64,000 bases of DNA from an uncultured delta proteobacterium (GCA_963707125.1 CAVPOU010000004.1:511234-575233), one strand, 5' to 3'; counted from the first letter of the stretch, positions 31,748 to 32,552 are shown. Notes: a model not told the origin generated them from the letters alone. A program made the numbers and translations.

Positions 31748-31987
31748 ATGATGAATGGACCGTGGGATAGAGCGAGCCGACCCCCGCAAAAAAACAAGGA
31801 TCAATTCAAAGAATTCGAGGCGACGGAACTCTACTGCGCCAAATGCAGACGGGCCGTACCGGTTCGAAAGAAACTTCTTTTGGTCTTGCCGGAGGGAGAC
31901 AAGTACGAATATCGGTGCCCTTTTTGCGGGAACACAGTAGGAGAGAAGCTGGACAAGAAGGGGCAATATTTTGGGGCACTCAAATAA
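31748..31987 (+). CDS. Small zinc-ribbon protein (CAKC...CPFC)
   Basis: 79 aa with GAGG upstream and two CxxC knuckles. Confidence 0.6.
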   Translation: MMNGPWDRASRPPQKNKDQFKEFEATELYCAKCRRAVPVRKKLLLVLPEGDKYEYRCPFCGNTVGEKLDKKGQYFGALK

Positions 31988-32052
31988 GTAGGCAGTAGGC
32001 AGTAGGCAGTAGGCAGCAAAATCAGTAGCGAGTATGCAGTAGGCAGTAAGCA
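31987..32052. repeat. TAGGCAG heptamer array (x4 perfect, then degenerate AGTA units)
   Basis: taggcag x4 are contiguous from ~31989. Partner array of the reverse-complement word lies at 32481-32552. Confidence 0.85.
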
Positions 32053-32090
32053 CAAAGAAAAACAACTAAGTATTCGAAATGATAGGCATT

Positions 32091-32471
32091 CTAGGGGGCG
32101 AACTTGTCCGCCTTTTCTATCATTCCATAGAGCATTTTGTTTACTTCATCGTACCTGCTGGACAGATCGCTATGCTTGGCATCATCGAGGTATCCAAAAT
32201 CTTTCGCAAAATCCAACCAAACTTCCGTTTCTCCAGCCTCACCAGCAGCATCAACGATTTTAGCGACGAACATCTTCTGGTATTTTCTTTTCTTCCACGC
32301 CTCGGCAATGTTGGCCGGGACACTCCTTGACGAGCGCCGGATCTGATCAGTGAGTGAATACTTTTCGTCCTTTGGGAAAGGCTTTGTTGTTTCATGGATC
32401 TCCAGAGCCAGCTTGTAAGACAGCTGATAGACTTTGAGATCCCGATAACCCCTGTATGGTTCCTTCGCCAT
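32091..32471 (-). CDS. Four-helix-bundle protein (23S rRNA intervening-sequence protein / TIGR02436-like family)
   Basis: YRDLKVYQLSYKLALEIH...LTDQIRRSSRSVPANIAEAW...AAGEAGETEVWLDFA. Confidence 0.8.
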   Translation of the reverse strand: MAKEPYRGYRDLKVYQLSYKLALEIHETTKPFPKDEKYSLTDQIRRSSRSVPANIAEAWKKRKYQKMFVAKIVDAAGEAGETEVWLDFAKDFGYLDDAKHSDLSSRYDEVNKMLYGMIEKADKFAP

Positions 32472-32480
32472 TTTCCTTGT

Positions 32481-32552
32481 TGCGTACTCCTTTATTTTTT
32501 TCTGCTTACTTTTTCCTCTTTCTGCTTACTCCTTACTGCTTACTGCCTACTG
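32481..32552. repeat. TACTGC/TTACT word array, reverse-complement partner of 31987-32052
   Basis: gcgtactcc...ctgcttact...ctgcttactccttactgcttactgcctactgg. Confidence 0.75.

Follow-up and report, generated by a model that had tools for sequence, protein, structure and literature searches.

The window analysed here, a 64,000-nucleotide (nt) stretch of DNA from an uncultured delta proteobacterium (GCA_963707125.1, CAVPOU010000004.1:511234–575233), carries in one of its intergenic spacers a gene for a four-helix-bundle protein that is enclosed by two inverted arrays of tandem heptamers. The protein, of 126 amino acids (aa), belongs to the 23S rRNA intervening sequence (IVS) protein family. The element is read on the minus strand, and its parts, with 5′ and 3′ given in gene sense, are as follows.

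32502–32552, minus strand: 5′ arm of about seven heptamer units, CAGTAGGCAGTAAGCAGTAAGGAGTAAGCAG on the minus strand, identified by Tandem Repeats Finder, by inverted-repeat arms and by stop codons in three frames.
32472–32501, minus strand: purine-rich leader, read from the sequence, with degenerate repeat units and the Shine–Dalgarno-like motifs AAGGAG and AAGGA.
32091–32471, minus strand: gene for the 126-aa four-helix-bundle protein (PF05635/TIGR02436, the 23S rRNA IVS protein family), supported by hidden Markov model (HMM) scores, an AlphaFold model and dN/dS.
32053–32090, minus strand: short 3′ untranslated spacer, read from the sequence, between the stop codon and the 3′ arm.
31987–32052, minus strand: 3′ arm of CTGCCTACT-type units (GTAGGCA × 9 on the plus strand), identified by Tandem Repeats Finder and pairing with 32502–32552.

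The initial annotation had placed the gene in the IVS-protein family, and curated models agree: the open reading frame (ORF) scores 121.8 bits with PF05635 (23S_rRNA_IVP; Pfam cut-off 33.8) and 114.1 bits with TIGR02436 (cut-off 24). A phmmer search against all ORFs of the window found one copy of the family in the 64 kb, and the only Pfam matches of the protein are 23S_rRNA_IVP and bAvd. The AlphaFold model (pLDDT 88.2) consists of four long helices; its nearest PDB structures by Foldseek are 2RLD and 2GSC (TM 0.75–0.89), which phmmer also matches at E ~6e-8, followed by the bAvd structure 4DWL (TM 0.73–0.85). The motif RxxxSxxxNxxE, described as conserved in the family (PMC3936711), is present as RRSSRSVPANIAE, and across 30 homologs R45, R46, S48, R49, S50, A56 and E57 are invariant and N54 is nearly so. 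With a dN/dS of 0.04–0.09, the protein is under strong purifying selection.

The two arrays share a period of seven nucleotides, with 9.1 copies of the unit AGTAGGC at 31987–32052 and 7.4 copies of CTGCTTA at 32502–32552 (Tandem Repeats Finder). The left-hand coordinates first given for them stand, and the right-hand array is confined to 32502–32552; the earlier start at 32481 adds about 20 nt of degenerate units. That the arrays are reverse complements of each other holds as well, at 77% complementarity over 53 nt and 85% over 33 nt. The 5′ arm begins 3 nt past the stop codon of the upstream FG-GAP gene, and the 3′ arm array, on the plus strand, begins at the stop codon of a gene for a 79-aa zinc-ribbon protein. 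The flanks of the element are protein-coding genes and not a 23S rRNA helix (9, 25 or 45), and an Rfam scan of the window returned three tRNAs, no rRNA and no other known RNA family. With up to two mismatches allowed, the two-unit motif GTAGGCAGTAGGCA has 17 occurrences in the window, where shuffled sequence gives an expectation of 0.15. Short-period arrays number about 33 over the 64 kb; they belong to at least eight families, lie nearly all in intergenic spacers and include several inverted pairs that enclose no gene. With so many arrays, a coincidental position of the gene between two of them could not be dismissed from the window alone; it is the comparative data that exclude it.

Homologs of the protein number more than 7,900 at E < 1e-10. 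Most are on contigs some 1 kb long, as would follow if flanking repeats break assemblies. We gathered 36 loci from species-representative genomes and 80 from metagenomes, and counted arm motifs at the 103 loci with at least 80 nt on each side of the gene. AGTANG motifs were found 427 times upstream and 52 times downstream, and CNTACT motifs 21 times upstream and 396 times downstream. When arms were defined as at least two purine-type (AGTARGS) units upstream together with at least two complementary units downstream, both were present at 79 of the 103 loci, and the same arrangement occurred at none of the 313 other ORFs of those loci; a chance neighbourhood is thereby rejected. An unanchored detector that used 7-nt periodicity alone, with the consensus compared with AGTARGS afterwards, gave a consensus within one mismatch of this unit for 86 of 93 upstream arrays and, as the reverse complement, for 82 of 100 downstream arrays, against 3% of random heptamers. 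Arms typically comprise about four units; the 5′ unit nearest the gene lies a median of 25 nt before the ATG, and the nearest 3′ unit a median of 19 nt past the stop codon.

The same arms are kept at protein identities of 62–87% under ten phylum-level labels: Deltaproteobacteria/Thermodesulfobacteriota, Planctomycetota (Brocadiales), Nitrospirota, Omnitrophota, Deferribacteres, Cloacimonadota, Ignavibacteriaceae, Latescibacterota, Stahlbacteria and Bacteroidota. Several of the carrier contigs are long, up to 2.9 Mb. In most of the genomes from other phyla, AGTARGS arrays occur beside the gene only, within the ±4 kb searched. Arms and gene are therefore co-inherited across phyla. Although arms are found without the gene, armless genes are rare and sites are not occupied at random, and the proposal that gene and arms form one unit is strongly supported. 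At the loci L018, L025 and L116–L119, purine-type arrays stand on both sides of the gene and complementary arrays follow 200–300 nt further downstream, as though an empty hairpin were nested there, ahead of the 3′ arm.

The arms also follow the gene when the gene diverges. Searching all fetched DNA with the family HMM revealed second, divergent four-helix-bundle genes on contigs that carry AGTARGS cassettes, each with inverted arrays of its own and of another unit: GAGTCGT upstream and ACGACTC downstream (L030p), GTCACAG and CTGTGAC (L109p), GGATGAT and ATCATCC (L022p), TTAGCAA and TTGCTAA (L010p), and CAAATTA and TAATTTG (L117p). A tblastn search of plasmids returned 37 records, cyanobacterial nearly throughout; among the 17 inspected, 11 had an upstream purine-rich array with the complement on the downstream side, three had one arm, one had direct arrays and two had none. 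Within one Nostoc genome, paralogs differ in their units (GGGAAA vs AGTCAGA, and GCAGGGG vs GGGGAGN). Units are common to proteins of at least 70–80% identity and can differ below about 65%; L034p, on a non-Nostoc contig, is 71% identical to a Nostoc protein and has the GCAGAGG unit in common with it. Each divergent paralog has its own arm sequence, and the arms go with the cassette and not with the host.

Close relatives show the cassette in more than one place. In the window the gene order is Memo, an empty hairpin (site A), a glyoxalase-family gene, a hairpin of another repeat family, the 79-aa zinc-ribbon gene, the arm–gene–arm element (site B) and the FG-GAP gene. Site A and the occupancy of the two sites in nine related genomes are as follows.

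31049–31152: empty hairpin of the AGTARGS family between Memo and the glyoxalase-family gene (site A), with arms at 31049–31083 and 31118–31152 and a loop of about 35 nt, found by array scan and folding (−46.5 kcal/mol, z = −5.4).
Site B occupied, window orientation: the window, L002/L003, L139 and L140–L142.
Site B occupied, reversed: L143–L145.
Site A occupied, forward: L006/L007.
Site A occupied, reversed: L008.

Wherever the spacer of the alternate site could be read, that site was an empty, purine-first hairpin of the AGTARGS family, and the genes between sites A and B are not rearranged. Host proteins separate the window and L002 from L006 and L008, and the tree of the cassette protein is congruent with this split; among these relatives the cassette protein is 82–87% conserved, Memo about 60% and FG-GAP about 55%. 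The four occupancy states therefore imply that, in a lineage inherited vertically, the cassette moved at least once and flipped at least twice. Empty sites retain both arms, so that no target-site duplication can be defined, and filled and empty sites have diverged so far that their loops do not align. A search of relatives for empty sites thus found an unoccupied hairpin, arms included, at the other site, and the mobility suggested for the unit gains support from two hairpins that are alternately occupied in both orientations.

The element also resembles the rRNA insertions from which its protein family takes its name. In a plasmid record of Azospirillum lipoferum 4B (AZO_p2; L137), an ORF of the family lies inside a bacterial large-subunit rRNA gene (835.8 bits with Rfam RF02541). 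The rRNA breaks off at the array CAGAGGA CGGATGA CAGAGGA CGGAGGA CAGAAAG, the ORF follows, its start codon likely being the ATG within the unit CGGATGA, and after TCCGTCC TCTGTCT TCTGTCA TCCGTCT the rRNA resumes. The IVS of Coxiella has two or three GACAGAT units and a GACAGAA directly before its ORF, in a copy number that varies between strains, and a 28-bp terminal stem that RNase III cleaves, with the 5′ cut at the first repeat (PMC4990558). Taken with the features of L137, this means that the element in the window is built like a canonical ORF-bearing IVS that has been placed in an intergenic spacer. ORF-bearing 23S IVSs, such as those of Leptospira, Coxiella burnetii (helix 45) and A. lipoferum, share with it the protein family, the terminal inverted repeats that form a long stem around the ORF, tandem heptamers directly before the ORF, about four to five units per arm and a sporadic, horizontally transferred distribution. 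They differ in that the window element lies between protein-coding genes and uses the unit AGTARGS, and in that RNase III excision has been demonstrated in the rRNA cases only. The resemblance to rRNA intervening sequences that the initial annotation drew is thus well founded. Since the package of gene and arms turns up in no fewer than ten phyla and also within a 23S rRNA IVS, it is a portable cassette and not an accidental neighbourhood.

Cassettes of this kind reside in cas operons too. In cas loci the family gene has been described at several positions, one of them between cmr3 and cmr2 (PMC3936711), and it is also reported in rRNA insertions of candidate phyla radiation (CPR) bacteria. 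Among our loci it lies between cas10 and cmr3 in Picosynechococcus PCC 7003 (L050) and between cas6 and cas4 in Anabaena sp. 90 (L133), with flanking arms at both, and downstream of cas2 in Pseudanabaena (L132), with no arms.

At the RNA level, the arms form the closing stem of the 581-nt sense RNA in both the minimum-free-energy and the centroid structures (z = −3.3). When arms were trimmed and coding sequence was kept out, the duplexes had a median of 27 bp and a mean of −42 kcal/mol, a stem length compatible with excision by RNase III. The two arms differ in what a ribosome would meet. Stop codons (TAA/TAG) occur in all three frames in 63 of 77 purine-rich 5′ arms and in 2 of 77 pyrimidine-rich 3′ arms, and 31% of the units in 5′ arms are Shine–Dalgarno-like and end in GG, against 16% in 3′ arms. 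Since pairs read purine-first whichever strand is taken, a ribosome would be halted ahead of the loop from whichever side it came; a by-eye reading of the eight inverted pairs in the window found the purine-rich arm first on both strands in all eight. A scan for one promoter type, sigma-70-like, found none upstream of the gene on the minus strand.

The explanation that we consider probable is that the element is a promoterless, IVS-type cassette residing in an intergenic spacer, whose arms pair in RNA and serve recombination in DNA. Such a cassette would comprise some 4–9 purine-rich AGTARGS heptamers, a leader, the 126-aa ORF, a trailer and the reverse-complement array. Lacking a promoter of its own, it would be transcribed by read-through from the upstream gene, here FG-GAP. 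In the transcript the arms would pair into an imperfect stem, a putative RNase III substrate by analogy with rRNA IVSs, and cutting there could make residence in operons or in rRNA helices little harmful. In DNA, homology supplied by the same arms may serve three kinds of event: inversion, when one arm recombines with its inverted partner; copying of the cassette into vacant hairpins of its repeat family; and integration once the cassette has been transferred horizontally. The arm repeats, whether as RNA stem or as DNA, are the probable target of the Avd-like protein; this speculative step is the weakest of the scheme.

Several points weigh against this explanation. RNase III cleavage of the element is extrapolated from rRNA IVSs, and the authors who described the Coxiella IVS concluded that its protein is unlikely to be produced in vivo (PMC4990558). 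The element encodes neither a recombinase nor a transposase, and filled and empty sites, compared by eye, are too diverged for insertion boundaries to be drawn. Roughly one locus in four is missing an arm or has arrays in the same orientation (L018, L025 and L116–L119). Two observations that speak for the explanation are qualified. The sense RNA duplex is more stable than the antisense one at 49 of 76 loci, with 27 the other way (p = 0.011), which favours a role in RNA but is a modest bias among loci that are not phylogenetically independent. Between co-directional neighbours the gene is co-oriented 49 times and opposed 5 times, in favour of read-through transcription, a count that depends on crude ORF calls. 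For arm covariation, the tandem register is ambiguous and pair-by-pair tests are meaningless, so scores against own and other partners were used: arms match their own partner at 0.50 and arms of other loci at 0.47 (p = 0.005), which means that arms are family-level sequences and that their locus-specific compensatory evolution is weak.

The main rival to the cassette explanation, which we judge unlikely though far from negligible, is a repeat–partner system like that of repetitive extragenic palindromic (REP) sequences and their REP-associated tyrosine transposases (RAYTs). The protein would recognise the flanking heptamer and seed, maintain or spread arrays in trans, with gene-containing pairs as autonomous copies and empty hairpins as non-autonomous derivatives. 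The unit is conserved across phyla despite the saturation of synonymous sites in the cassette gene even within the family; this pattern in the sequences points to a constraint on the arm unit that goes further than pairing. Every paralog has a unit of its own, gene-less hairpins with the cognate unit are found close by, an arm of one locus could almost stand in for that of another, and array pairs appear invasive, even within ORFs of L025. The taxa that are rich in heptamer arrays (cyanobacteria, Beggiatoaceae and Bacteroidetes) are probably also rich in the PF05635 family. Set against this, the family has no known catalytic motif, AGTARGS arrays in most other phyla are found beside the gene only, the window combines at least eight array families with a single four-helix-bundle gene, linked to the AGTARGS family only, and co-inheritance alone explains the correspondence between unit and protein. 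As in REP doublets (REPINs), one gene lies between inverted copies of a repeat that also occurs as gene-less intergenic hairpins (the filled pair at 31987–32552 and the empty pairs at 31049–31152 and 51876–51930). RAYTs, unlike the four-helix-bundle protein, for which no catalysis is known, are HUH Y1 (IS200/IS605-like) transposases with a known catalytic motif, and REPs are single palindromes where the units here form tandem arrays.

Taken further, the same idea would make PF05635 proteins in general the sequence-specific partners of their flanking repeats and the cassettes the autonomous form of a repeat-propagating system, a generalisation that we hold to be doubtful. The cyanobacterial short tandemly repeated repetitive (STRR) heptamers are likewise tandem 7-nt intergenic units. 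It is a similarly tentative extension that STRR-like and TAACTGA-like arrays and hairpins are gene-less derivatives of this system, and that IVSs are its rRNA insertions. TAACTGA direct repeats have been described from Beggiatoaceae, cyanobacteria and Bacteroidetes (MacGregor 2015, PMC4679880). STRR and TAACTGA arrays resemble those studied here in being tandem 7-nt intergenic units that often end just before start codons, with a patchy spread across phyla, for which the TAACTGA paper saw ‘no mechanism evident’ (PMC4679880). They differ in being mostly direct arrays with no linked gene named, where the present arrays are inverted pairs bound to a specific gene; the TAACTGA paper does not mention four-helix-bundle or IVS proteins, and the unit in the window is not one of those published.

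A domesticated host regulator, in which the arms act as a cis-regulatory stem for translation or mRNA stability and the shifts in position are local rearrangements, is improbable. It would suit the strong purifying selection on the protein, the congruence of cassette and host trees in the close clade, the enrichment of Shine–Dalgarno-like units in the 5′ arm and an insertion site, with one gene upstream and a membrane-protein gene downstream, that is conserved in L010, L014 and L016. It fits poorly with a near-identical architecture in ten phyla at protein identities of 62–76%, with cassettes inside cas operons and in rRNA, and with a clean relocation in both orientations at both sites that left the intervening genes unrearranged.

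That the intergenic heptamer arrays are host terminators or protein-binding sites between two of which the gene merely happens to lie, as the abundance of arrays and of gene-less inverted pairs in the window might suggest, is effectively excluded by the 79 of 103 loci against no control ORF and by most other genomes, in which arrays occur only beside the gene. Equally excluded, and the least probable of all, is a remnant of a diversity-generating retroelement (DGR) with the protein as its Avd accessory factor, for which the 4DWL-like fold and bAvd similarity speak: both curated models stay below their cut-offs (PF22296, 37.9 bits vs 40; NF033474, 36.3 bits vs 80), no reverse transcriptase (RVT) domain was found in the 16 neighbouring ORFs scanned within ±10 kb, a scan that included no search aimed at template or variable repeats, and the protein has no match among 50,697 phage records.

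Avd itself acts on structured RNA. It is described as a positively charged pentameric barrel, and Avd-binding stem–loops have been sought in DGR RNA (10.1101/2023.10.23.563531). The likeness of the present protein to Avd lies in the four-helix-bundle fold and in the five chains per entry of the related structures 2GSC and 2RLD; the differences are an identity of only 13%, scores below the Avd cut-offs and the missing reverse transcriptase. Integron cassettes are comparable in part. They are likewise promoterless single ORFs, mostly co-oriented with host transcription and carrying a foldable imperfect inverted repeat, but their attC lies on one side and requires the integrase IntI, whereas the present element has arms on both sides and no integrase. 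Of the marks of a miniature inverted-repeat or insertion-sequence element, inverted arms are present here and a transposase is absent, while the arms retained at empty sites leave no duplication to be defined.

ORF-bearing IVSs with inverted termini, and their horizontal transfer, were already known, as were heptamer arrays in cyanobacteria and Beggiatoaceae (PMC4679880). What the present loci add is that genes of this family lie between clade-specific inverted short tandem arrays both inside and outside rRNA. In the full-text literature, of which our coverage is incomplete, we found no paper that ties the protein family in general to flanking inverted heptamer arrays, nor any report of occupancy switching between hairpins. 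PF05635/TIGR02436 is a very large family (13,124 clusters at 50% identity) of unknown function, whose members are labelled only ‘IVS proteins’ or Avd look-alikes. The cassette rule unifies rRNA intervening sequences with hundreds of insertions outside rRNA, explains why metagenome assemblies break at these genes and offers a simple rule for annotating them. For the heptamer arrays of intergenic DNA, a puzzle ever since STRRs were reported from cyanobacteria, it also supplies a concrete candidate that can be tested as their partner or, failing that, as their vehicle. If the wider partner reading held, a single mechanism would account for three old puzzles: where IVSs come from, what the ‘S23’ family does and how bacterial heptamer arrays arose. 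The promoterless, hairpin-bounded, operon-tolerant design may also interest engineers of genetic constructs.

Two further features of the AGTARGS family lie elsewhere in the window.

51876–51930: second empty hairpin of the AGTARGS family, with arms at 51876–51903 and 51910–51930 and a 6-nt loop.
52145–52172, plus strand: lone AGTARGS array with tRNA-Cys and tRNA-Gly on its two sides; an ACTCC-type octamer array (52178–52221) comes after it.

Lying between tRNA-Cys and tRNA-Gly (52061–52302), the arrays at 52145–52221 would be part of the tRNA precursor transcript. The other 7- and 8-nt-period families, among the eight or more in the window, include AGACAGA, CAGTRAT, GGAGTAYT, GGTGCAC, CACGAAA and TTCGAAA types; examples of arrays are those at 21330–21410, 23655–23893, 31639–31727, 47062–47119, 47569–47627, 55161–55192, 56557–56634, 58669–58701, 60292–60362 and 62269–62426.

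Repeats of other kinds are present as well. A REP-like palindrome, CACGGACAAA-loop-TTTGTCCGTG, occurs at 2222–2252, 42442–42470, 56515–56543 and 57635–57663, with half sites at 44196 and 47727; its 10-mer is found 10 times in the window against 0.19 expected, and GCCACC often comes after the palindrome. The dispersed repeat CCCCAGTTGAATNGTCCC has three copies (42112, 44001 and 58747) against none expected, and those at 44001 and 58747 are part of a longer palindromic unit ending in GGGAATTCAACGGG.

The FG-GAP gene upstream of the cassette (in the region 32556–34147) encodes 328 aa, compared with 517–524 aa in L002, L006 and L139. Its 5′ part has been replaced by DUF6788 (33342–33788) and a UPF0236 fragment (33836–34147), which together look like the remnant of an insertion element, and a perfect sigma-70 consensus lies at 33309–33337.

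Hairpins of other families house insertions too. In the 1-Mb relative L002, a group II intron (an ORF with RVT_1 and GIIM domains, 5730–7860) lies in the loop of an AGACAGA-type hairpin that is intact in the window (31639–31727) and in two other relatives (L003 and L139), and a CACGAAA-type hairpin is nested in the same L002 loop; insertions of several kinds seem to land in the loops of hairpins. In L025, from a Desulfovermiculus metagenome-assembled genome, pairs of AGTARGS arrays (5442–5566 and 6826–7626) lie in frame within long ORFs, such as one of 458 aa (4683–6059), and add peptides like AVGSKKGAEDSKEYAVGSRQ...LLTPYSSLSS, which suggests that hairpins can invade coding sequence.

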